Position numbers and translations under genes: made by a program
Part shown: piece after piece, positions 2,182 to 55,321 of the stretch
Numbering within the stretch: position 1 is the stretch's first letter
Layout: each line of letters opens with the position of its first letter
Assembly (NCBI GenBank): GCA_040905385.1
Contig: JBBDRP010000002.1
Location: 679,010-743,009, forward strand
DNA from: Minisyncoccota bacterium
GTDB taxonomy: Bacteria > Patescibacteriota > Minisyncoccia > Phycocordibacterales > SW-6-46-9
Direction of reading: 5' to 3'
DNA length: 64,000 nt
Notes under the pieces: generated by a model
Told to the model about the DNA's origin: nothing
Seen by the model: only the letters and a program-made list of their open reading frames with translations
Database searches by the model: none

Positions 2182-3519
2182 TTATCTTTTAATTGGTACT
2201 AATATGCGATCGATGGCTACACATTCTTCATTTACGATGATATAGCACTCTACGTAATGTTCACCATGGTATTTCGTATTCTCAATCCTTTCTTCTTTAC
2301 CCTTATCATGAGATATTTCACCTCGTAAATCTTTTGCTCTCTGTGCCTCACTTCCATAGTTGCGAACTTTCCACATTACTCGATAAGAGTCTGGGACATC
2401 AATATCTGTAATCTTGAAGGTTAACCTCTTCTTTTTTTCAAGAGGAACCCCTTTGTCAATGAACCAGCTCAGAGGATTTTTTCGAAAACTTTTCTGTTCA
2501 ATATCAGCATCTATGGATACTGTGTATCTGGAGGATGTGTCTATGGGTATACCATAGTCTTCAGTTATATCTTGATCACCATATGATGGATACTGCTCAT
2601 TTAGCTGAGCGATGTTTGTTTCTGACGCGTATTTTGCAAATTTATTGTGTGATGTAGGGAAATCCATACCGAAAATCTTTCTCCATTCTTTAGACGCTTC
2701 TTCAAGATTTCCTTCTGATTCATGATTAAGGGCTTTTTCCGAGCGTTTTTTAGCAGTTTGAGTACGAGAGACCCAGTCTTCACCTAAGTTAATGAATTGT
2801 GATGAGGCAGGTGAATATAAATTCGAGTTTCGCTTCATTACTAAGTAGTCAAAAAAGCCAGCGATCAAGTGGGGGAATTTCGGATTTTCATTCTCTGCAA
2901 AAGGTAGATTAAGAAAATTAACCGCGAGAAGCTCTACTTGGTAGGAAGGTAATGGTACGTTTGAATTTTCGACCCATTTCTTAAGAATTTTTACAAAATC
3001 TAACGTGAGCGAGTTTTGCTCTTCTGACTGCTCTAAATTTATGACTTCCATATTAGGGTTCCAAATCTCCCAGAAACCTCCGTTTTCTGTATTTGGAATC
3101 TTAAAAGCTCCTGAGGAAAGTTTCCATGCTGGTAGAAGCTCTACCGAATGGGAACTTTCTGCAAAGTTTATAACAATAACTTTTCCAAAGGCGGTTATAT
3201 GTTCGGTTGTTGAAAATCTTTCATTCAATATTTCGCGGATTTCTTGCAATAATTTTGATTGCCGATTTCCCTGCCCGGCATCAAAACGACCAAATTCTTC
3301 ATCAGGCATTATGAAAAGTAAATCTATATCTTTCGGTGGCCGTATGTTTGTATCTTTTCTGTATGACCCCACTACTTCTTTCGTGCTTCCATCATAGTCA
3401 CTTTCGTAATACTTATCATGCACAGCACCACACACACTTTTAATTTTCGTCGAAGCATCTTCTTTTTGGCGTTCTGTGAGCTCTATATTACTTAAGAGTT
3501 GTAAGAAATTCTCATTCAT
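2182..3519 (-). CDS. SMODS / CD-NTase-like nucleotidyltransferase with a C-terminal extension
   Basis: 445 aa. Pol-beta type motif GSYRKDTNIRPPKDIDLLFIMP (G-S ... D-x-D), with a further acidic residue in the downstream ...VELLP... segment. The roughly 200-aa C-terminal region has no recognisable motifs. Confidence 0.6.
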   Translation of the reverse strand: MNENFLQLLSNIELTERQKEDASTKIKSVCGAVHDKYYESDYDGSTKEVVGSYRKDTNIRPPKDIDLLFIMPDEEFGRFDAGQGNRQSKLLQEIREILNERFSTTEHITAFGKVIVINFAESSHSVELLPAWKLSSGAFKIPNTENGGFWEIWNPNMEVINLEQSEEQNSLTLDFVKILKKWVENSNVPLPSYQVELLAVNFLNLPFAENENPKFPHLIAGFFDYLVMKRNSNLYSPASSQFINLGEDWVSRTQTAKKRSEKALNHESEGNLEEASKEWRKIFGMDFPTSHNKFAKYASETNIAQLNEQYPSYGDQDITEDYGIPIDTSSRYTVSIDADIEQKSFRKNPLSWFIDKGVPLEKKKRLTFKITDIDVPDSYRVMWKVRNYGSEAQRAKDLRGEISHDKGKEERIENTKYHGEHYVECYIIVNEECVAIDRILVPIKR

Positions 3520-4408: not shown

Positions 4409-4689
4409 GTAAATAACAGTATATTAAATATTTACCTTAAAATCAAGTGGAGTGAGTCCCTCTATTGGATTTACCGTTCCAAAGCTAGTAATATAAGTAT
4501 AGACAACTTATGCCTAAACCACTGGTGTGTGGCATGGCGCAATACATGAAATCCATCCAAGGTACAAAGCTCCTCGTCAGGAGCACCTTGGATGGTTGTC
4601 GGCGGAAACGTCGGCAGATGGGCCTCGCCCATCAACTGGCGGGGAGCTTTCTGCATCTCCGCTCATTACAAAACTAACCAAAACCATCT

Positions 4690-7895: not shown

Positions 7896-8308
7896 GCAAA
7901 GAAAAAACAATTGAAAAACGGCAAGAGATCCGAAAGAAACTCATTGTTGAGCAGTTAGAAAAAACGCCAATTGTTGAAACATCCTGCCAAAAGGTCGGGA
8001 TCGGGCGCTCCACCTACTACCGCTGGCGTAAGGAGGATTCGGAGTTTGCCAAGCGAGCAGACAAGGCCCTCTTTATTGGTAAATTACTTGTCAATGACAT
8101 GGCTGAGTCACAACTGATGAGCCTGGTAAAAGAAAAGAATCTATCAGCGGTAAAGTTCTGGCTTCGCAACAACCACCCACAGTACGCTCGCAAGCTAAAC
8201 ATTAACGCCCATCTTAAACACGAGCGTAAAGAACTGACTGACGAGCAAAAAGAGATTGTTCGCAAAGCATTAACATTAGCAAAACTTAACTCACCTGATC
8301 ATGACTAA
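7892..8308 (+). CDS. phage terminase small subunit (HTH-containing)
   Basis: 138 aa. HTH GIGRSTYYRWRKEDSEF typical of TerS proteins. Overlaps both the methyltransferase and terL by 4-8 nt. Confidence 0.65.
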   Translation: MSKEKTIEKRQEIRKKLIVEQLEKTPIVETSCQKVGIGRSTYYRWRKEDSEFAKRADKALFIGKLLVNDMAESQLMSLVKEKNLSAVKFWLRNNHPQYARKLNINAHLKHERKELTDEQKEIVRKALTLAKLNSPDHD

Positions 8309-9848
8309 AAACAACATTCAAATCGATAAAAAGATCATTGAAGAACTAATCAACGACCGTGATTCCCGTATTGAAGCAACTAAGCAGTCACATCTCTTAT
8401 TCTTTCACACCTATTTTGCTCATTACGTTGAATACGAAACGGCAAGATTCCAAAAGGAGATGTTTGCAATGACGGAGAAAGAGCAAGGTCTTGATGTGAT
8501 CATTGCCTTTCGAGACTCAGGAAAGTCCTCAATTGTCACTACATCTTATCCACTATGGGCAATTCTTGGCAAACAAGAAAAGAAGTTTGTTTTGATTTTG
8601 AGCCAGACTCAAAACAAGGCTCGTCAGCACTTAAAGAACATGAAACGTGAATTAGAAAATAATCAGCTACTACGCGATGATCTTGGTCCGTTTCAAGAGG
8701 AATCAGACGAGTGGGGTGTTCACGCTCTAACCATACCTAGGTTTAATGCCAAAATAATGATCGGATCTGTAGATCAAAGTATTCGTGGTATTCGACACCT
8801 TCAATATCGCCCTGACTGCATCATTCTTGACGATATTGAGGATACTCAATCCGTAAAAACTAAGGATGGCCGAGACAAAACTTGGAATTGGTTTACTGGT
8901 GAAATCATTCCAGCAACAGATCGTGGAGCGCATCTAATAGCTGTTGGAAACCTATTACACCGTGATTCACTTCTTAAGCGTATAGAAGCCTCGATTACCT
9001 CAGGAGACACGAAAGGTACATATAAAGAATTTCCGATTATAGACGGCAAAAAGAAGCCTTTGTGGCCAGATAAGTATCCAAACGAAGCAGCAATTACAGC
9101 TGAGCGAGAACGGGTAATGGATAGGGTTTCCTGGCATCGTGAGTATCTTCTGGAGATCCTTCCAGATGAAGATCAGGTCATCTTACCTGAATGGATTCAC
9201 TATTATGATGAACTTCCAGACACACGCCAAAAATTCATTGCCATTGGCATTGATCCAGCTATCAGCCAAAAGGACACGGCTGATTACACAGCTATGATTA
9301 CAGTCAAAGTATACGGACGGAGTGATAATATGCGCATTTATGTTCTGCCCAACATAATCAACAAACGACTTACGCATCTAGAAACAATTGATACGGCTGT
9401 GAGTATATATGAGTCAGTCAGGGGTCAATCAAGGCCAACAATTTACATCGAAGATGTAGCCTACCAAAAATCCTTGGTTGAACAAATTGACCAAAAACGT
9501 TATATCACTGTAAAGGGAGTAAAGGTTGGAGGCCAGGATAAATGGGCTCGACTTACGAGTGTCAGTCATATCTTCCAGAATGGACAGATACTATTTCCTA
9601 AAACAGAAATATCTGACCGCTTGGTGAATCAACTCTTAGGATTTGGGGTGGAAAAACATGATGATCTTGTCGATGCCTTAACTTTAGTGGTTCATCAAAT
9701 AATGGAAAAAGATCGGGGTGGATATGGTCGCGCATACAAGCGAGTGCGCCGTAACAGTCCGGAAGTCGGTCATCTTAATAGCAGAGAGCGTCATATGCTA
9801 TTTGGTGGCAATGATTGGGCTTCAGTAGACATTCAAAAATTACAGTAG
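8301..9848 (+). CDS. phage terminase large subunit
   Basis: 515 aa. Walker A-like AFRDSGKSS, Walker B-like CIILDDIED, and a C-terminal nuclease-like region with conserved acidic residues. Confidence 0.7.
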   Translation: MTKNNIQIDKKIIEELINDRDSRIEATKQSHLLFFHTYFAHYVEYETARFQKEMFAMTEKEQGLDVIIAFRDSGKSSIVTTSYPLWAILGKQEKKFVLILSQTQNKARQHLKNMKRELENNQLLRDDLGPFQEESDEWGVHALTIPRFNAKIMIGSVDQSIRGIRHLQYRPDCIILDDIEDTQSVKTKDGRDKTWNWFTGEIIPATDRGAHLIAVGNLLHRDSLLKRIEASITSGDTKGTYKEFPIIDGKKKPLWPDKYPNEAAITAERERVMDRVSWHREYLLEILPDEDQVILPEWIHYYDELPDTRQKFIAIGIDPAISQKDTADYTAMITVKVYGRSDNMRIYVLPNIINKRLTHLETIDTAVSIYESVRGQSRPTIYIEDVAYQKSLVEQIDQKRYITVKGVKVGGQDKWARLTSVSHIFQNGQILFPKTEISDRLVNQLLGFGVEKHDDLVDALTLVVHQIMEKDRGGYGRAYKRVRRNSPEVGHLNSRERHMLFGGNDWASVDIQKLQ

Positions 9849-9900: not shown

Positions 9901-11196
9901 ATGACCGACAACCATCCAAGTAGTGCTTCTGACGAGGTTAAATACGTCCTCTATGCCCGTAAATCAACCGAAAGTGATGAACAACAGGCACTTTCAATAG
10001 ATGCACAGGTCAAGGAAATGAAGCGGCTAGCAGAGAAAAAAGACCTCAATATAACAGAAGTGATGACAGAAGCACACTCTGCTAAAGCAGTCGGGCAACG
10101 ACCGGTCTTCAACAAGATGATTGAAAAAATTAAAACCAGTGAATTCACTGGGGTACTCACCTGGGCACCAGATAGACTCTCTAGAAATGCTGGAGATCTT
10201 GGTGCCCTTGTTGATCTTATGGATCAAGATGTACTCAAGGTTGTCCAAACACACGGACAACGCTTTAGTGATGCTCCATCGGAGAAGTTCTTACTAATGA
10301 TAATGGGATCACAGGCCAAACTTGAAAATGATCAGAAAAGTAAAAATGTGAAGCGTGGACTACGGGCCAGATGTGAGCAAGGGCTGTGGCCTGCACCCGC
10401 ACCGACTGGGTACTTAAAACACAGAGACAGGAAAAAGAAATGCCATGTAGTGGTTGATCCTAAGCGAGCACCAACCATAAGAGATATCTTTCGAAAAGTT
10501 GCGTACGAAAATATGTCCGGAAGAGATGTGTATAGATGGCTGAAAAAGGATGCTGACTTTAAAACTAAAAATGGAAAGCATCTTACACAATCTAATATCT
10601 ATCTTATCCTTAAAAATACCTTCTACTATGGAAAATTTGAGTATCCGACCGGTAGCGATAATTGGTATGACGGAGTACATGAACCTATCATATCTAAAGA
10701 ACTGTACGAAAAAGTACAGTTATCTATACGAGCAAATACTCAGTACAAACCGAGCTCAAAAGAATTCGCCTTCACAAAGCTCATGAAGTGCGGAGAGTGT
10801 GGATCTGGAATTACCGTTCAAGAGAAAATAAAGAAATTGAAAGATGGTAGTGAAAGAAATTATGTCTACTACAACTGCACAAGAAGTAGAAATACCTACT
10901 GTGATGCCGAGTACATACGTGAGGTTGATCTGATTGAGCAACTTAAGGATCTAATAGATGAAATTAATATTAACGAACTAGGAGTACAAGAAAGTCTTCG
11001 GAATGAATTAGAGAGATTTAATTCATTCCGTGGATTAATTGGCGAAGATAAAAAAGATACAAAGATAGAGAACGTTGGAATTAAAGAGTATGCAAAATAT
11101 ATATTAAACAATGGAAGTTTAGTAGAAAAAAGACAGGTGTTATCTAATCTTAAAGGTAATATTATCTTAAAAAATGGAAAATTATTATATGAATAG
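9901..11196 (+). CDS. large serine recombinase / integrase
   Basis: 431 aa. Resolvase-type N-terminus (YARKSTESDEQQALSIDAQ ... LTWAPDRLSRN), a recombinase domain, and a Cys cluster (CGECGSG...YYNCTRSR...C) forming a zinc ribbon. Confidence 0.85.
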   Translation: MTDNHPSSASDEVKYVLYARKSTESDEQQALSIDAQVKEMKRLAEKKDLNITEVMTEAHSAKAVGQRPVFNKMIEKIKTSEFTGVLTWAPDRLSRNAGDLGALVDLMDQDVLKVVQTHGQRFSDAPSEKFLLMIMGSQAKLENDQKSKNVKRGLRARCEQGLWPAPAPTGYLKHRDRKKKCHVVVDPKRAPTIRDIFRKVAYENMSGRDVYRWLKKDADFKTKNGKHLTQSNIYLILKNTFYYGKFEYPTGSDNWYDGVHEPIISKELYEKVQLSIRANTQYKPSSKEFAFTKLMKCGECGSGITVQEKIKKLKDGSERNYVYYNCTRSRNTYCDAEYIREVDLIEQLKDLIDEININELGVQESLRNELERFNSFRGLIGEDKKDTKIENVGIKEYAKYILNNGSLVEKRQVLSNLKGNIILKNGKLLYE

Positions 11197-14780: not shown

Positions 14781-15008
14781 AGGTTGTAAAGATAAAGGCG
14801 TCTCCCGCCGGAGACGCCTGAGTTTATAATCATCTCTCCTTGCGGATGGAATTAGCACCTTACTTTCGCAGGTTGCCGGTGGGTCACAGGGCCAGATCCC
14901 TCACCACACTCACGATAATTATTCAGTTGTGTTTACATAGTAACATCAACTCACGCCAGAAAGAAAGATTGGGATTAGCTTCGTTTATTACAATTTTTGT
15001 CCTCTTGA

Positions 15009-26145: not shown

Positions 26146-26562
26146 TTACTGCAATGGTTTAGCTCTAAGTGTTGACGACTCAAAGAGACCGACAACTAAT
26201 AAAAAAACAACCAAAACCAACGGAATCCACAAAAATGGTGTAACAATTATGCAAAAATATTTATCTCCTTTCGATTCAAACTCTTTTGCTCTCCACCTCT
26301 TTAGTAGCAAGTTTATGTAAGTCACTGCTACCGGAGCTAAAATTATAAAAGCAAAAAACGCTTGAAAGTAAGCAGGAAACGACCCCAGAATTTGATCATA
26401 AGCTGCAACACCGGATATGTCTCGATAGAAATATGGATAGAGAACCGTGGAAGGAATAACAAAAATTATACCAAGTAATATAGATAATGACCGGCGACCC
26501 CATTTTGAATCCGGCGCATACTTTTTTAGCTTATCTAGTTTCTTAATGATTTTCATATACAT
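26146..26562 (-). CDS. hypothetical integral membrane protein
   Basis: 138 aa with about four hydrophobic helices. Confidence 0.5.
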   Translation of the reverse strand: MYMKIIKKLDKLKKYAPDSKWGRRSLSILLGIIFVIPSTVLYPYFYRDISGVAAYDQILGSFPAYFQAFFAFIILAPVAVTYINLLLKRWRAKEFESKGDKYFCIIVTPFLWIPLVLVVFLLVVGLFESSTLRAKPLQ

Positions 26563-26659
26563 TCATATTATCATGAGTGAAGGGGTGTAGAGACTTATTT
26601 GTATTCTCTTGGAGTGCGATCTCAGAACGAAGTACAGAGTGGTGTGCTCATTATCTGAG

Positions 26660-26731
26660 AGCCGGAGAGAGGAATTGAACCTCCGACCTATCCCTTACGA
26701 AGGGATTGCTCTACCCCTGAGCTACTCCGGC
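26660..26731 (-). tRNA. tRNA-Thr (anticodon CGU)
   Basis: Acceptor gccggag/ctccggc, D-arm gctc-aggggta-gagc, anticodon stem atccc/gggat with loop ttcgtaa, T-arm ggagg-ttcaatt-cctct. Confidence 0.8.
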
Positions 26732-26809
26732 TCTCAGATAACCAACCTGGCTGGACAAATTAGTATTGTATACTAAAGAGGAGGAATTATTAACTCATAT
26801 ACCCACATC

Positions 26810-27112
26810 ATGTTATTTCGCACACGTAATATCATCAACAGTGTAATCAACATCATTCTGACCATCGTTGAAGGACTGCTACTTTTCCGCCTCATTCTTA
26901 AGCTACTTGCCGCAGACTCATCAGCCATCTTTACTCGCTGGATTTACGAAACAAGTCAGCCACTTCTAGCTCCATTTGAGGGTATGTTCCCGACTGTCGT
27001 TGAGTCCGGAATCGCGCTTGAGATGTCGACATTGTTTGCGATTATGGTCTACGCGCTGCTTGGCTACCTACTCATCGCTATTGTAGACACGGTGTACAAC
27101 GCCAGTAAATAA
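26810..27112 (+). CDS. YggT family membrane protein
   Basis: 100 aa with two TM helices and YggT-like spacing. Confidence 0.65.
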   Translation: MLFRTRNIINSVINIILTIVEGLLLFRLILKLLAADSSAIFTRWIYETSQPLLAPFEGMFPTVVESGIALEMSTLFAIMVYALLGYLLIAIVDTVYNASK

Positions 27113-27130
27113 TTTATAAATTCCCTGGTG

Positions 27131-27160
27131 CAAAAAAGCCTCCTGGTATGGAGGCTTTTT
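27131..27160 (+). terminator. rho-independent terminator (aaaaagcctcc-tggtat-ggaggcttttt)
   Basis: A perfect 7-bp stem flanked by an A tract and a T tract, so it could terminate in either direction. Confidence 0.7.
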
Positions 27161-27207
27161 GTATCCTGGTGACAGGGTAGTAGAAAATAAAAGCTATTTT
27201 CCTCTGT

Positions 27208-27282
27208 GCGGCTGCCAAGATTCGAACTTGGGACCTCACCGTTATCAGCGGTGCGCTCTAAACCAGGCTGAGCTACAGCCGC
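27208..27282 (-). tRNA. tRNA-Ile (anticodon GAU)
   Basis: Acceptor gcggctg/cagccgc, D-arm gctc-agcctggtt-agagc, anticodon stem caccg/cggtg with loop ctgataa, T-arm ccaag-ttcgaat-cttgg. Confidence 0.85.
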
Positions 27283-27345
27283 ACGCAAGAAAATAGCATT
27301 GCTTTTATTTATTTGTTTCGAGTAAAGTGCTCACACGATTAGTAT

Positions 27346-27393
27346 CAGCGGTGCGTTCTAAACCAAGCTGAGCTATAGCCGCAAACAAATACC
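27346..27393 (-). pseudogene. truncated tRNA-Ile copy (5' half only: acceptor 5' strand, D-arm, anticodon stem 5' strand and loop)
   Basis: About 48 nt that are about 90% identical to positions 1-38 of the adjacent tRNA-Ile. No matching 3' half or T-arm follows it. Confidence 0.6.
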
Positions 27394-27431
27394 ATCTTAC
27401 AGTTTTTCTCCAACAATCTCAAGAAAACTTA

Positions 27432-28220
27432 CTAAAGTGACTGCAACTTCTGCAAAAGAGCTTCGTAATCAAGAGAGCCGTTTGTAACTACCAAATTACC
27501 ACTGTCTGGCTGCCAACTTTTGCCCGCAAAATCAGTAACCGTACAACCCGCCTGAGACATGACCAGCGACGGACCGGCGTAATCCCATGGACTACTTCCA
27601 CGAGAAATATACCAATCACGCCGGCCAGCAGCCAACCAAACGCCGGTAACTGCCGGTGAAGCAATAGCACTGCACCACGCCTCTCCATCTGATAGTTCCG
27701 ATACGGCCGCTTTGGTTTCATTCTCTTTTTGATTTACACCAATATTTCCGATTCCGTATGTTTTCTTCCAGTTATTTTGTTTAGAGGAGTGGATTATTTT
27801 TTCATTTAATTCAGTTCCTTTATCAATCTCTGCATAGCAAAGTTCATCAGTTGCTGGTAAGTAAATTGCTGCGTGCGTCACCTGCTTTTTCTTATTATCC
27901 CAGACGCCAATATTGATACCGAAAAGCTCGACCTCACTACTAAAATTGAGCGTACCATCAAGCGGATCAAGAAACCATGTGTATGGCGCATCAGTTGCGA
28001 CACTTGCTTGAGAATAATCACCCTCTTCGGCCACGATATGGTGATTAGGATACTCTCTCTCGATTGCCTGGACCATCACTCGCTGAGAAGCCAGATCTGC
28101 CTCGGTCATAATATCATTGATTCCCTCACCCTTTGTTTGTACCTGCAAATCAACAGTCTTAAATCGCTTCATTAATTCATCGCCGGCCACTTTAATTGTT
28201 TGAGTAATAAAATCTTTCAT
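27432..28220 (-). CDS. inositol monophosphatase family protein (SuhB/CysQ-like)
   Basis: 262 aa with WFLDPLDGTLNF, the WDYAG motif and the metal-binding EE..D pattern. Confidence 0.85.
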   Translation of the reverse strand: MKDFITQTIKVAGDELMKRFKTVDLQVQTKGEGINDIMTEADLASQRVMVQAIEREYPNHHIVAEEGDYSQASVATDAPYTWFLDPLDGTLNFSSEVELFGINIGVWDNKKKQVTHAAIYLPATDELCYAEIDKGTELNEKIIHSSKQNNWKKTYGIGNIGVNQKENETKAAVSELSDGEAWCSAIASPAVTGVWLAAGRRDWYISRGSSPWDYAGPSLVMSQAGCTVTDFAGKSWQPDSGNLVVTNGSLDYEALLQKLQSL

Positions 28221-28237
28221 ATCTTTAGTGTAGCAAA

Positions 28238-28280
28238 TTTAAAAGCCACCGCGGTGAAACCGGATGGCTTTAAATTAATC
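28238..28280. repeat. hairpin repeat family copy 1 (AAATTTAAAAGCCAcc...ggtGGCTTT)
   Basis: Shares A-tract/GCCA...TGGC/T-tract arms with the copies at 28772-28818 and 29500-29545. The loops differ, and the changes in the stem are compensatory. Confidence 0.6.
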
Positions 28281-28399
28281 GGTGGCAGTTTGTCTCATGC
28301 GAGACTCATGGTGCCAACCATGAACAATTTTGAATTCGCTTCTCTCAGGTTGTTAGGCTGAAAGGCCCTTCTCGGAGTCTTGTCCGAGTGCAGTAAGGC

Positions 28400-28696
28400 T
28401 TACTCGTGGCTTAGCGCACTCTTTTTACTGTCTGTATCTCCAACAAAGTAGAGATAGATAGCAGCCAGAGCTAGTAGTATCGCCACCACCCAGTACACAT
28501 AAGGCGGCAGGTTTACATACCAAGCACTCCCGAAAACATCGAGAAAGAGGTATCCGTCTGGAGCAGTGTACTCACCTGAAAAAGCTAAGTCATCTGACAG
28601 CCCAAGCTTGATACCAAAGTTGGCAACTTGGATTCCTGCGACTAAACCGGCTGCAAGCAGTAAAAATGCAGAGAGTAAACGATTGATGTATTGCAT
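28400..28696 (-). CDS. small membrane protein, hypothetical
   Basis: 98 aa with three hydrophobic helices. Confidence 0.4.
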   Translation of the reverse strand: MQYINRLLSAFLLLAAGLVAGIQVANFGIKLGLSDDLAFSGEYTAPDGYLFLDVFGSAWYVNLPPYVYWVVAILLALAAIYLYFVGDTDSKKSALSHE

Positions 28697-28771
28697 TTAT
28701 TTGGGGTTTAAATTAAGGTTCCTGTTTCTGATTATTATATTAAACCAATAAATGTTGTTTGTCAAATCTAC

Positions 28772-28818
28772 GTCAATAAATTTAAAAGCCATACCGGAAA
28801 ATCCGATATGGCTTTTTT
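28772..28818. repeat. hairpin repeat family copy 2
   Basis: aatttaaaagccataccggaaaatccgatatggcttttttgattt. Confidence 0.6.
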
Positions 28819-28826
28819 GATTTGAT

Positions 28827-29363
28827 TTATTTACGCTGAAACATAAACCCCTGCGTACAATGATTTGGATCAGCACGGTCCATAGGAACATCAGTAATAT
28901 AAAGTTGTTCACCCAGCGAAGTAGTTGTAATGGAAAGTGAACGTGATAACTTCTCAGTCATAGCAATCACACCATCCATACTGTGTTCTTCTATACCCTT
29001 TTTGCCCCACAAATCCAAAACAAGACAAGCTGTCTCTGGATGCACATAAGAATAACCACGTCGGGATGCCTCCTCTCTGACATCATCAAAGAAGAGATGA
29101 CTACCTCGAAATGCTAAGCCCTTCATGATTAGTAACTGATATTTTATTCCGTTAGAAATTCCTTCATTGAACTGAGGTTCCTTAAGCAAGTGAGGAACAC
29201 CGCAGGCTGAAACTGTATATTCTTGTCCAAGACTATAACCAGCCTGAGAAAACTTTTCATACCATTGCTTTCCTGTCATTCCGTTAGATATTACTTCTAA
29301 CTCAATGATATATTTTTCGTCTTGATACCATTTCGTTTCTTTCTTCGTTATCATAGTAAACAC
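28827..29363 (-). CDS. hypothetical protein
   Basis: 178-aa ORF with no recognised motif. Confidence 0.5.
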   Translation of the reverse strand: MFTMITKKETKWYQDEKYIIELEVISNGMTGKQWYEKFSQAGYSLGQEYTVSACGVPHLLKEPQFNEGISNGIKYQLLIMKGLAFRGSHLFFDDVREEASRRGYSYVHPETACLVLDLWGKKGIEEHSMDGVIAMTEKLSRSLSITTTSLGEQLYITDVPMDRADPNHCTQGFMFQRK

Positions 29364-29499
29364 CTTTTATTTAATTATTATTGTTCTAATTTTCTGTTAT
29401 TTATAATACATTATTTAAATGTACTTGTAAAGTGCTAAAATGTCGCTTATTTAGGGCTGTTTATTCAAACCCACCTACTTGTAGCCACAAGTAGGTGGA

Positions 29500-29545
29500 T
29501 AAATTTAAAAGCCACCTCGGTTGTGCCGGGTGGCTTTTTTGATTT
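29500..29545. repeat. hairpin repeat family copy 3, preceded by a perfect 12-bp hairpin at 29468-29495
   Basis: aaatttaaaagccacctcggttgtgccgggtggcttttttgattt. The upstream hairpin is ccacctacttgt-agcc-acaagtaggtgg. Confidence 0.6.
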
Positions 29546-29553
29546 TTGTGAAT

Positions 29554-29784
29554 TTACTTCACTACGCTCTTATGCAGTTTATTCTTCACTTCTCTTACTG
29601 TTGGATTAGATGGTATCTCGCTAACAACAAGATGGTAAGCATCCTCAAGAATTAGTGGTTTGAGCTCTTTTTCCAGCCTCTCCATCTCTTCTTTCGTACC
29701 AGCAGCTAAAATTTGAAGAGTGAGATAATCGTACTTGTGAGAAGGGATAACGTTTAATACATGCACATTATTCATAACTATCAC
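29554..29784 (-). CDS. small hypothetical protein
   Basis: 76-aa ORF immediately downstream of the 16S terminator region. Confidence 0.4.
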   Translation of the reverse strand: MIVMNNVHVLNVIPSHKYDYLTLQILAAGTKEEMERLEKELKPLILEDAYHLVVSEIPSNPTVREVKNKLHKSVVK

Positions 29785-29940
29785 CTATTTGTTTCGCAGA
29801 GGAACGCTTTACATCCTCTAGTTGGTATTCTATTTAAAATATTCTAGTATATTTATATCATACTACATTACTTTGTCAAGTACTAAAATAGCCCGTAATT
29901 TAGCGATATTCCCAACACAAAAACACTATCTATAATCAAA

Positions 29941-29967
29941 AAACTCCCTTTCGGGAGCTTTTTTTTA
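29941..29967 (-). terminator. bidirectional intrinsic terminator (ctccc-tttc-gggag with flanking A and T tracts)
   Basis: Hairpin with a T8 run, located downstream of the 16S 3' flank. Confidence 0.65.
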
Positions 29968-30304
29968 CATAAATAATTTGTTTTGCTATTTGCAAGACTC
30001 GCGCAGTGCGATTTGCACGGTTTCAGCTGTGCTGAAAAATCGCGCGAGCGTAGAAGAATTCTCGCTGGAGAATTCATTCGTGTTGCAGTAAATAGCGAGA
30101 GAAATTATCACCTTTTTCGTTTCGTTCATCCGCCGGTAACGGTATTCCGGGAACCGATCAGTTTTTGATGCACTGATATACATATGTGAAATTGTACACT
30201 CAAATAAGTGCGTACACTAACGCAGCGTGTAGCGATGATGAATAAATTCGTCATACGCTTCACTTGCAGTAGTCGACCTGTCAATCTTCAACGTTAGTTG
30301 AGGA

Positions 30305-31944
<1,640 letters not shown>

Positions 31945-32441
31945 TCTCGGTTGAACGAAACAAAGAAAATGACAATCATTTTATTTATTTCTGTACTGAT
32001 CTAGATAAGTTCTATTTCTCACCAAACTGTTTTCTATCTAAAAAAACAGTATGAATGATCGTGATCTATTCGGCTGTGAAAGAGCAGTATGGCTGACGCA
32101 ACCGCCAGACAAAAAATGCCCTCTTTCAGGGCGTTGACCATTATATACAGATGAAGCCGGAAGTCAACACGTTGCCTTCCGGCAGTCTAAAGTTAAAAGT
32201 AGAAAGTTCACCCAGTTAAATGCAGCTACGCTACAATCCCGCTCAAACGGGATTATTTAACCGGGTTAAAAGTCGATCAAGCTTCTCTAGAAAAACCATG
32301 GTCGATGCGTGCACCAGCGAGGTCAACAGCTAGCTTTGCAGCGAAAAAAACATAATTCATGAGGCTATATATATTTGACGCCTGTTAATTGAACGTGTAT
32401 TATTTACTTAAACAAGAACTTTCAAATCAAATTGTTGATAA

Positions 32442-32891: not shown

Positions 32892-33152
32892 TTAACTATC
32901 GTAAATCTCAGAGCGATGGCCGGCGGCGTCAACTCGTATCAGGTTGCTTTCTGGTCTTAGTCTATACAAAACACGATAATCTCCAACCCGCAGCTTGAAG
33001 AAATCACTATAATTCCCTGACAAGCGTTCGTGATTTACAGAATCAACATTTTCTGCCAACCAACGAAGTTTCTTCTCTATACGTTCACAAACCGCAGTAT
33101 CGAGTTTATTTAATGTCTCTTTAGCCTGCGGTGTGATATATACTTTCCACAT
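32892..33152 (-). CDS. RelE/ParE family toxin
   Basis: 86 aa with the core motif LRVGDYRVLYRLRPESNLIRVDAAGHRSEIY. It lies 2 nt downstream of the antitoxin ORF. Confidence 0.8.
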   Translation of the reverse strand: MWKVYITPQAKETLNKLDTAVCERIEKKLRWLAENVDSVNHERLSGNYSDFFKLRVGDYRVLYRLRPESNLIRVDAAGHRSEIYDS

Positions 33153-33153
33153 T

Positions 33154-33402
33154 TTAAGCGGTCTTCTTTTTTACCTCTTCAAGCGGAATCAGGTCTTCAT
33201 CAGGTGTTTGGCGAGCCTGCTCTAACTGCTCTTTAATTTCTTCACGCAACTCTAGGCCGGCATCCGGGTCATCGGTGAGAGTTTGCAAAGCCCGAACAAC
33301 CTCCTCGCGCACTACCTGGCGTAGGTCTTCAAGATTGATGTTTTTGTTCGTTGCTTTACTCATAAGTATTCTCATTGTACTGCACACAAATATGTCTTGC
33401 AA
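33154..33402 (-). CDS. antitoxin of RelE/ParE pair (start probably at internal Met, ~33363)
   Basis: Small acidic protein whose gene almost overlaps the toxin gene. A C-terminal acidic tail is typical of such antitoxins. Confidence 0.6.
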   Translation of the reverse strand: MQDIFVCSTMRILMSKATNKNINLEDLRQVVREEVVRALQTLTDDPDAGLELREEIKEQLEQARQTPDEDLIPLEEVKKKTA

Positions 33403-55073: not shown

Positions 55074-55091
55074 ATTGTTGCGGGGGCCGGA
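55074..55091. repeat. 18-nt direct repeat of tRNA-fMet 3' end plus flank (attgttgcgggggccgga)
   Basis: An exact copy of 55247-55264. It is followed, on the minus strand, by a hairpin terminator. Confidence 0.7.
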
Positions 55092-55250
55092 ATTTCACAT
55101 AGACACAGCCTCGTTCCCGACCCCTCGACTTTGAAAACCCTCGGTTTTCAATACTTTCCAACACGGGAACGAGGAGTTCAAATCCTTAGTGCTATAGACA
55201 AAATTCCCTTGGTATTCAGGGTGACACTAATATATTCGATTGAATCATTG

Positions 55251-55321
55251 TTGCGGGGGCCGGATTTGAACCGACACCTGGAGGTTATGAGCCTCCCGAG
55301 GTACCATTCCTCCACCCCGCG
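55251..55321 (-). tRNA. initiator tRNA-fMet (anticodon CAU, C1xA72 mismatch)
   Basis: Acceptor cgcgggg/ccccgca with an unpaired C1-A72, D-arm gagg-aatggta-cctc, anticodon stem ggagg/cctcc with loop ctcataa, T-arm gtcgg-ttcaaat-ccggc. Confidence 0.7.

Follow-up and report, generated by a model that had tools for sequence, protein, structure and literature searches.

A stand-alone 16S rRNA gene, a variable gene slot and a probable relic half of tRNA-Ile in a Candidatus Paceibacterota genome

The region described here surrounds the 16S rRNA gene in a 64,000-nt stretch of DNA from a Minisyncoccota bacterium (contig JBBDRP010000002.1, positions 679,010 to 743,009), which we call the window. Because the inositol-monophosphatase-family protein (IMPase) encoded there is 100% identical to an NCBI protein of a Candidatus Paceibacterota metagenome-assembled genome (MAG), the window is placed in the Candidate Phyla Radiation (CPR), and is a CPR/Patescibacteria (Candidatus Paceibacterota) genome. 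Its 16S gene is followed by a gap of 3026 nt with four open reading frames (ORFs), all co-oriented, and then by an intact tRNA-Ile(GAU), which has a copy of its own 5′ half close by. The original prediction, made from the sequence alone, had read this as an rRNA operon split by a four-gene insert. The genes it had listed, namely 16S, an IMPase homolog and three hypothetical ORFs in the same orientation, tRNA-Ile(GAU) and tRNA-Thr, were all confirmed. Throughout, rRNA and tRNA genes were called with Rfam and ARAGORN, and protein families with Pfam, NCBIfam, PHROGs and HMMER. The two RNA genes and their flanks are listed below in the order of transcription; L124 is the most closely related locus of the survey that follows.

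32140..32167, minus strand: promoter-like site TTGACT-16-TATAAT before 16S, tentative (consensus scan, 11/12 matches)
31948..31976, minus strand: 16S leader arm of a predicted processing stem, a 29-nt inverted repeat with 30104-30132 (79% complementary)
30309..31944, minus strand: 16S rRNA gene, full-length bacterial (Rfam RF00177, 1370 bits, model positions 1-1533)
30104..30211, minus strand: 16S trailer including the predicted 3′ processing arm (30104-30132), which pairs with the leader; conserved in L124
about 29941..29967, minus strand: intrinsic-terminator-like hairpin ending the 16S unit, GCTCCCGAAAGGGAG between A and T runs (sequence reading and scan)
27394..27422, minus strand: predicted tRNA-Ile promoter TTGAGA-17-TAAGAT (scan), with the block CTTGAGATTGYTGGAGAAAAAMTGTAAGAT kept directly upstream of the L124 tRNA-Ile
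27343..27388, minus strand: 5′ half of tRNA-Ile, most likely a relic, 46 nt and 89% identical to 27243-27288
27283..27342, minus strand: 60-nt leader from the relic to the intact tRNA, similar to the 16S leader at 31963-31990 (0/1000 shuffles)
27206..27282, minus strand: intact tRNA-Ile(GAU) (ARAGORN and Rfam, 69.6 bits)
27131..27160, minus strand: predicted terminator hairpin after tRNA-Ile, AAAAAGCCUCC...GGAGGCUUUUUU (sequence and predicted fold)

Rfam detected neither 23S nor 5S in any part of the 64 kb, which extends 32 kb upstream and 30 kb downstream of 16S, in agreement with the earlier statement that no 23S lies downstream, and ARAGORN reported no tRNA-Ala in the window. The 16S gene of the window is thus unlinked, in the sense of more than 1500 bp between 16S and 23S or no adjacent 23S. 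A scaffolding artefact can be dismissed for the stretch from 16S to tRNA-Ile, since two Logan contigs of run SRR27977661, L126 (window 30422-28790) and L001 (28807-27229), are both 100% identical to the window and jointly cover it from the interior of 16S to the interior of tRNA-Ile; they were assembled independently, yet may share source reads with the MAG. A set of species-representative genomes, searched with the IMPase and with a tRNA-Ile D-loop/anticodon pattern (the D-loop reads CAGCYTGGTTTAGAG), gave no match, and the lineage is unrepresented there.

For comparison we used 120 metagenome loci sharing the 16S signature CCTTGTACTCACCGCCCGTCAA, 120 nt from the 16S 3′ end. Their 16S identity to the window was 73-82%, with the single exception of L124 (88%). 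Clade counts were limited to loci with at least 77% 16S identity and at least 3 kb (n=34) or at least 5 kb (n=20) of downstream sequence. tRNA-Ile(GAU) was present in 34/34 of the former and 20/20 of the latter, while tRNA-Ala and 23S were each found in 0/34 and 0/20, and Rfam confirmed that ten long loci carry no 23S. The order 16S-Ile-Ala(-23S-5S) was confined to loci below 77% identity, one of which, L117, has the full 16S-Ile-Ala-23S-5S operon; L117 is thus a relative of the kind, with a contiguous operon, against which the original prediction had proposed to compare the locus. Because tRNA-Ala and 23S follow 16S in none of the 34 loci, the break-up of the operon is ancient and clade-wide. 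It is also known in kind, as exclusively unlinked rRNA gene clusters in Patescibacteria were reported by Brewer et al. (bioRxiv 10.1101/705046). The suggested break-up of an rrn operon during genome reduction was therefore right, except that the break is old and shared by the clade and not particular to this genome. In one relative of 81% 16S identity (L019), a 23S gene of about 4 kb, probably with insertions, was found 8.3 kb upstream of 16S on the same strand, reversing the usual gene order.

Spacer statistics were taken from the 71 loci that link 16S to tRNA-Ile. Their spacers range from 225 to 4280 nt (median 1270), with tRNA-Ile co-oriented with 16S in 64/71 loci and inverted in 7/71. A small type IV secretion system (T4SS)-pilin-like gene (PF18895), convergent to 16S and directly downstream of it, occupies 35/71 spacers; neither the window nor L124 has it. 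Other spacers contain ClpB and a CPA2 cation/proton antiporter (L103), a DHH phosphoesterase (L067) and many singletons. At L083 a LAGLIDADG_2 homing endonuclease gene begins 48 nt past 16S, and free-standing endonucleases of this kind could aid spacer turnover. Homologues of the four ORFs of the window were found in 0 of the 120 related loci; the same four genes as an ancestral arrangement among relatives, which the original prediction had named as the observation that would speak against it, were thus not seen.

L124 shares with the window the 16S terminator hairpin, the promoter and 5′ untranslated region (UTR) of the first spacer gene, the tRNA-Ile promoter, a YGGT gene, tRNA-Thr(CGU) and an 819-aa protein, and its tRNA-Ile is 98% identical to the window copy. 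The trailer is 92.7% identical between the two, versus 87.5% for the 16S 3′ domain, and a window-specific stretch of 60 nt at 30212-30270 is missing in L124. Between the promoter blocks, L124 carries two unrelated ORFs of 190 aa and 227 aa, the latter with an N-terminal helix-turn-helix (HTH) domain. With the same flanks and different ORFs, the filling of the slot has been replaced, and the four genes of the window fill this variable slot in a way particular to their lineage. The suggested insertion between 16S and the tRNA holds in a weak sense, in that the genes are lineage-specific; the slot is variable across the clade, and the locus is not the mark of one event that split a canonical operon. 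The gene of the 227-aa HTH protein overlaps the tRNA-Ile promoter in L124 and has a homologue in the spacer of L069.

The 5′-half copy reported beside tRNA-Ile is real, but is made up of 6 nt of leader and tRNA positions 1-37 (40 nt) rather than of 48 nt of tRNA. It ends after CTGATA in the anticodon loop, at the canonical position 37/38. It had been described as lying beyond the intact gene, which is correct in plus-strand coordinates; in the sense of transcription it is located 60 nt upstream, between the IMPase gene and the tRNA. The two copies are exactly 100 nt apart from start to start, and no shuffle reached such a match. The half copy starts 11 nt past a -10 element that in L124 directly precedes the intact tRNA-Ile, and no half copy was found in L124 when the two loci were compared. 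The half copy differs from the intact gene by G7A, a C to T change in the D-loop and G24A, and acceptor and D-stem pairs are broken. The intact copy has the L124 base at the sites in the D-loop and D-stem; in the acceptor stem the two genomes are not alike. Neither ARAGORN nor Rfam scored the half copy as a tRNA. In the predicted fold of the transcript the cloverleaf with its extended stem stays intact, and the half copy is tucked into a separate hairpin closed by an 8-bp stem (AUUUGUUU with AAACAAAU). Most likely, the half copy is a decaying relic.

A simple 100-bp tandem duplication was considered and rejected, as the 60 nt between the copies is unlike the sequence upstream of the first copy (176/1000 shuffles were as good). 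No 3′ half of tRNA-Ile was found in the flanks, and ARAGORN in intron mode found no outer intron-containing tRNA. The half copy was not left as a scar at the end of the four-gene block, because the conserved tRNA-Ile promoter separates it from the block and no second tRNA fragment is present at the 16S-proximal end; it records a separate 100-bp event.

Partial tRNA copies in relatives were then scored by local alignment, with shuffled flanks as the reference. Significant partial copies of the locus's own tRNA were present in the flanks at 22 of 70 distinct tRNA-Ile loci, so that the half copy, although not shared with L124, has similar anticodon-loop-bounded counterparts elsewhere in the clade. 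Upstream matches occurred at nine loci. With L122 set aside (positions 1-57, 113 nt away), 8/8 of the remaining 5′ fragments stop within canonical positions 33-37 and lie 17-68 nt ahead of the gene. Among the downstream 3′ fragments, 8/16 have their start at positions 32-37; seven lie 41-61 nt past the gene and that of L027 173 nt past it. Five loci (L028, L050, L060, L082 and L086) carry both fragments in nested order around an intact gene with paired leader and trailer, and the segment between the nested fragments measures about 173-187 nt in four of them (L028, L050, L060, L086) and about 120 nt in L082, where the outer halves have complementary acceptor strands of their own. The break points vary by locus (33/34, 35/36 and 37/38), and partial copies were also found beside tRNA-Leu (4/9) and tRNA-Ala (2/8). 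The pattern of anticodon-loop-bounded fragments is potentially new.

Several further observations concern such fragments. L082 is seemingly doubly nested, with repeated CCCCGTAC...GTACGGGG palindromes. Anticodon-loop-bounded tRNA-Ile fragments also stand beside the intact gene in L094, L095, L027 and L105, and in L060, L094, L095 and L108 a shared downstream hairpin, whose base changes are compensatory, immediately precedes the 3′ half. In the window itself, tRNA-Met (55250-55321, minus strand) is accompanied 155 nt downstream by an 18-nt copy of its 3′ end at 55077-55094 (17/18 identical), which resembles an attachment-site direct repeat with no element between the copies.

Insertions typical of CPR are present in the 16S gene, one of 55 nt close to model position 190, the other an AT-rich block spanning about 30680-30790. 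At its 3′ end the gene has the tail GGAAUGUAUCCUAA in place of GGAUCACCUCCUUA, the CCUCC core of the anti-Shine-Dalgarno (anti-SD) sequence being missing, and the 16S of L124 (oriented, about 717-730) has a tail identical to window 30309-30322 (minus strand). Loss of the anti-SD motif has already been published for about half of Parcubacteria (PMC9297842). A canonical-looking AGGTGAT is found 4-5 nt before the ATG of the first spacer gene, and is kept in both the window and L124 despite the lost anti-SD. The terminator-like hairpin lies about 350 nt beyond the 16S 3′ end, at the position where the original prediction had placed it, and L124 has a matching hairpin, GCTCCCGCAAGGGAGC followed by a T run. 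The trailer holds further small hairpins. Another terminator-like hairpin, GCCCUGAAAGAGGGC followed by a U run at 32118-32132 (minus strand), stands directly after the promoter-like site of 16S, and could be a leader attenuator or the terminator of an upstream unit. Just upstream of the promoter region there is a ParE-family toxin gene with a small partner ORF upstream of it (32892-33402, minus strand).

The spacer of the window contains the following features.

29772..29879, minus strand: predicted promoter TTGACA-N16-TATAAA with the 5′ UTR belonging to the first spacer gene; 80% identity to L124 over 29864-29772 (oriented 1088-1185)
29554..29784, minus strand: ORF76, hypothetical, 76 aa; probable ATG at 29778, and a 73-aa gene call on Logan contig L126
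29501..29537, no strand given: terminator-like hairpin of the AAAGCCA...TGGCTTT family, copy 1/3 (repeat family search)
28827..29363, minus strand: ORF175, uncharacterised family; likely ATG at 29354, giving 175 aa
28778..28814, no strand given: hairpin of the same family, copy 2/3 (scan and repeat family search)
28400..28696, minus strand: ORF98, hypothetical, a small predicted membrane protein of 98 aa; gene call on Logan contig L001
28235..28271, no strand given: hairpin of the same family, copy 3/3, ending 15 nt before the ATG of the IMPase gene
27432..28220, minus strand: inositol-monophosphatase-family protein, 262 aa (Pfam PF00459 Inositol_P, E = 5.4e-45)

The L124 counterpart of the block at 29864-29772 precedes a different ORF. 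A sequence scan counted four terminator-like hairpins and three promoter-like sites between 16S and tRNA-Ile, and a permissive Rfam scan of the spacer, trailer and half copy returned merely weak terminator-like matches. The AAAGCCA...TGGCTTT hairpin, followed by TAAATTT, occurs three times in the 64 kb (chance expectation 0), always in the spacer and once after each small ORF, which suggests a common origin or serial duplication of small gene cassettes. This recurrence gives the filling the look of an entity in its own right. ORF76 and ORF98 matched no Pfam or PHROG family. ORF175 matched none either, and a word-indexed protein search found it alone; a full HMMER scan revealed 112 remote homologues of 170-250 aa with 25-35% identity and the consensus W.E.DGVI.F.VTSDG.TGE.WI.RL, and ORF175 is a genuine member of an uncharacterised gene family. 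A PDB match of this family to a phage tail immunoglobulin-like protein spans 34 residues, too short to use, and ORF175 showed no convincing similarity to the 190-aa ORF at the equivalent position of L124 (E = 0.026, 32 residues).

In E. coli, SuhB is an IMPase-family protein of the rrn antitermination complex. A SuhB-like functional tie of the window IMPase to 16S was dropped, with a score of 109 against a cut-off of 332 bits and no conserved linkage to 16S; its scores fall under the NCBIfam cut-offs for HisN, SuhB and CysQ. The gene did not serve as a synteny anchor either, since its best homologues are at most 49% identical and in three relatives are not near 16S or tRNA-Ile. Because these homologues occupy unrelated contexts, the IMPase gene is not ancestrally linked to 16S.

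The leader and trailer of tRNA-Ile lengthen its acceptor stem, with 27276-27306 pairing with 27184-27214. In the window such an extension is confined to tRNA-Ile and tRNA-Thr, which adjoin 16S, and is found in none of the other four tRNAs; leader/trailer pairing is significant at 52% of the related tRNA-Ile loci. This pairing and the likeness of the tRNA-Ile leader to the 16S leader fit descent from an rRNA-operon processing context. An apparent likeness by eye of the window leader and trailer to those of L028 was not significant and was dropped. Two genes follow tRNA-Ile downstream.

26810..27112, plus strand: YGGT-family membrane protein gene (Pfam PF02325), with a 74%-identical orthologue at the same position of L124
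26659..26731, minus strand: tRNA-Thr(CGU) (ARAGORN and Rfam); its leader and trailer lengthen the acceptor stem by 10 perfect base pairs (26651-26741)

We consider it likely that the locus represents the normal rRNA layout of its Paceibacteria lineage, with an old split, a variable slot and a separate half-tRNA event. The ancestral rrn operon would have been broken long ago between tRNA-Ile and tRNA-Ala/23S. As a unit of its own, 16S would now run from a promoter-like site to an intrinsic terminator, its leader and trailer forming a processing stem, while tRNA-Ile, the first spacer tRNA of the old operon, would have stayed downstream with its own promoter, an rRNA-like leader/trailer stem and a terminator. 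Gene gain and replacement would be tolerated in the stretch from the 16S terminator to the tRNA-Ile promoter, whose small genes may run from promoter-like sites of their own to their own terminators. In the half-tRNA event, a 100-bp segment consisting of a new 60-nt leader and new tRNA positions 1-37 would have been joined into the resident anticodon loop, leaving the old 5′ half stranded just past the old promoter. The relic would then be transcribed within the pre-tRNA leader, cut off by RNase P at the mature 5′ end, and left to decay.

A recent mobile insertion of the four-gene block could instead have split a canonical rrn operon, with the half-tRNA as the attachment-site scar. Integration classically targets tRNA genes (PMC9897764), no related spacer contains any of the four genes, three of them end in related hairpins confined to the spacer, and the G+C content of 29001-30000 is low (0.35). 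As an account of the operon split this is largely refuted, and we judge it very unlikely overall, given that the unlinking is clade-wide and older than the window genome (tRNA-Ala and 23S 0/34) and that Pfam, NCBIfam and PHROGs detected no recombinase, integrase, transposase or phage family in 26-30.3 kb, the nearest recombinase gene being a serine recombinase at 9901-11196, 16 kb away. Nor does the half copy have the form of a scar: it is the 5′ half where the 3′ half is usual, just 60 nt lie between the repeats, the conserved tRNA-Ile promoter stands between it and the block, and the 16S-proximal block end has no tRNA fragment. A chimeric join beside the rRNA gene, made in assembly or binning, would be in keeping with a MAG source and with the tendency of rRNA flanks to break metagenome assemblies. 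It is exceedingly improbable, because the Logan contigs are 100% identical over 30422-27229, L124 has the same order (trailer-terminator-promoter block-tRNA-Ile-YGGT-tRNA-Thr) in another metagenome, and 71 other loci connect 16S to tRNA-Ile.

Two other explanations concern the half-tRNA. It might be a functional leader element under selection, either a decoy for a tRNA-binding factor or an aid to folding or processing, as its place within the predicted transcript just past the promoter and the 8-bp enclosing stem of the predicted fold might suggest; in several lineages the outer 5′ fragment also tracks the lineage's own acceptor sequence. We judge this very unlikely as well, since the half copy is missing from the closest relative, its substitutions break D-stem and acceptor pairing, fragments in relatives show all degrees of decay, and no known RNA family matches it. 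Somewhat better, although still unlikely, is the possibility that the half-tRNA is what survives of the outer half of a nested tRNA, formed when a short unit with its own tRNA-Ile was inserted into the resident anticodon loop, and that this recurs in the clade; the unit might be a mini mobile element or what is left of an element that disrupts a host tRNA and puts its own copy in its place. The 22/70 loci with partial copies, the 8/8 upstream and 8/16 downstream fragments bounded in the anticodon loop, the five nested loci and the complementary outer acceptor strands of L082 all speak for such nesting; the differing break points suggest several events, and integration in which a host tRNA is disrupted and a substitute provided has a precedent (PMC10865867). 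On the other hand, a 3′ outer half is missing from the window, and intron-mode ARAGORN detects no outer gene. None of the units has an associated recombinase or endonuclease, and the leader and trailer of the window bear no significant similarity to their counterparts elsewhere. In one subgroup, part of the common junction sequence is explained by a promoter, and since partial copies are found beside tRNA-Leu and tRNA-Ala as well, the whole pattern may be generic integration or duplication debris. In its general form the idea, which we put forward only tentatively and do not expect to hold, is that tRNA genes of the Paceibacteria clade, chiefly the tRNA-Ile after 16S, may repeatedly have received short insertions of about 100-190 nt within the anticodon loop, each carrying a replacement tRNA or half with its own leader/trailer stem. 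Outer halves of the resulting tRNA-inside-tRNA nests may decay or be homogenised by gene conversion, and the 5′ half in the window may be one of them. If true, this would represent an undescribed minimal mobile unit that targets and carries tRNA, or the compact end-state of disrupt-and-replace elements.

Some points weigh against the lineage-layout reading that we prefer. The absence of 23S is established solely within 32 kb upstream and 30 kb downstream of 16S. All relatives are distant (16S identity at most 88%), so the gain of the four genes and the half-tRNA event are dated loosely; the lack of a half copy in L124 could be a secondary deletion, and the fragments of the same geometry in distant relatives would be compatible with gene conversion acting on a copy of older origin. 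Promoters and terminators, like processing, are predictions from sequence. In particular, the promoter call for 16S is uncertain because a terminator-like hairpin directly follows it, and the ATG of the IMPase gene, 15 nt past a terminator hairpin and with no promoter of its own, makes the operon structure of the insert ambiguous.

Elsewhere in the window, the segment 2182-11196 holds a homologue of an oligonucleotide cyclase of the cyclic-oligonucleotide-based antiphage signalling system (CBASS) type (2182-3519), a LOOT RNA match (4511-4633), a DNA methyltransferase, a phage terminase large subunit (8301-9848) and the large serine recombinase (9901-11196) mentioned above, which suggests a prophage-like or defence island. 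An S-adenosylmethionine (SAM) riboswitch (S-box) match was found at 14827-14921 (minus strand), in a low-G+C stretch at 11-17 kb (G+C 0.28-0.39).

For annotation, these results imply that 16S followed by protein genes and a lone tRNA-Ile, without 23S, is the expected state in this CPR lineage and does not point to misassembly or recent insertion, and that half-tRNA matches beside tRNA genes should be treated as relics and not as genes. For evolution, the locus would illustrate a stepwise dissolution of the operon, in which tRNA-Ile is long kept with 16S and with rRNA-style stems and gains its own promoter and terminator, and the gap becomes a landing zone for small genes of fast turnover. The recurrent anticodon-loop-bounded fragments could point to an unrecognised process of tRNA disruption and replacement in very small genomes.

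Split tRNA genes are known from Nanoarchaeum equitans and other Archaea, and 37/38 is the canonical position of tRNA introns and splits. The half copy resembles these in being a stand-alone 5′ half that ends at 37/38, but differs in that an intact tRNA-Ile lies 60 nt away, no 3′ half gene or joining sequences are present, the host is bacterial and the substitutions are disabling. Fragments of tRNA genes at the attachment sites of integrated elements were reportedly described by Reiter in 1989 and Williams in 2002. Such fragments are also treated by van der Gulik et al. 2023 (PMC9897764). As in those cases, a partial direct tRNA repeat stands beside the intact gene and its boundary is in the anticodon loop, a common crossover location of tyrosine integrases; unlike them, the window duplicates the 5′ and not the 3′ half, with 60 nt between the repeats and neither integrase nor element. 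In the tRNA-dependent lysogeny of mycobacteriophages, the host tRNA is interrupted and a replacement is supplied (PMC10865867). No prophage, integrase or common core is identifiable in our case, the inserted segment is merely about 100-190 nt, and the intact tRNA of the window is a hybrid with the resident 3′ half, or its 3′ relic has been lost. By analogy, however, an interrupted tRNA that is not rebuilt, with a gene of the same isotype beside the junction, would fit the nested relatives, and its geometry would also suit the 5′ relic of the window, which has neither a 3′ relic nor an element body.

The canonical bacterial rrn operon runs 16S, tRNA-Ile, tRNA-Ala, 23S and 5S, with tRNA-Ile(GAU) and tRNA-Ala(UGC) in a short spacer. 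The window retains 16S followed by tRNA-Ile(GAU) on the same strand, with putative processing stems around both, but has a 3-kb gap with four protein genes, separate promoter- and terminator-like signals, and no tRNA-Ala, 23S or 5S. Unlinked rRNA genes were reportedly also found in Deinococcus-Thermus, Rickettsiales, Helicobacter and Buchnera in the survey by Brewer et al. in ISME J 2020. Like the clades of that survey, the window has no 23S within 1500 bp or about 30 kb, shares the trait with a coherent clade, and belongs to a small genome with symbiont-like features. Unlike them, its lineage keeps tRNA-Ile(GAU) after 16S with tRNA-Ala gone, and the interval between the two genes is a gene-bearing variable slot of 225-4280 nt. 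To our knowledge, neither the kept tRNA-Ile linkage nor the gene-bearing slot was described in that survey. We believe that this persistent linkage of 16S and tRNA-Ile across a gene-bearing slot, together with the anticodon-loop-bounded relics, is the modestly new part of the present observations.

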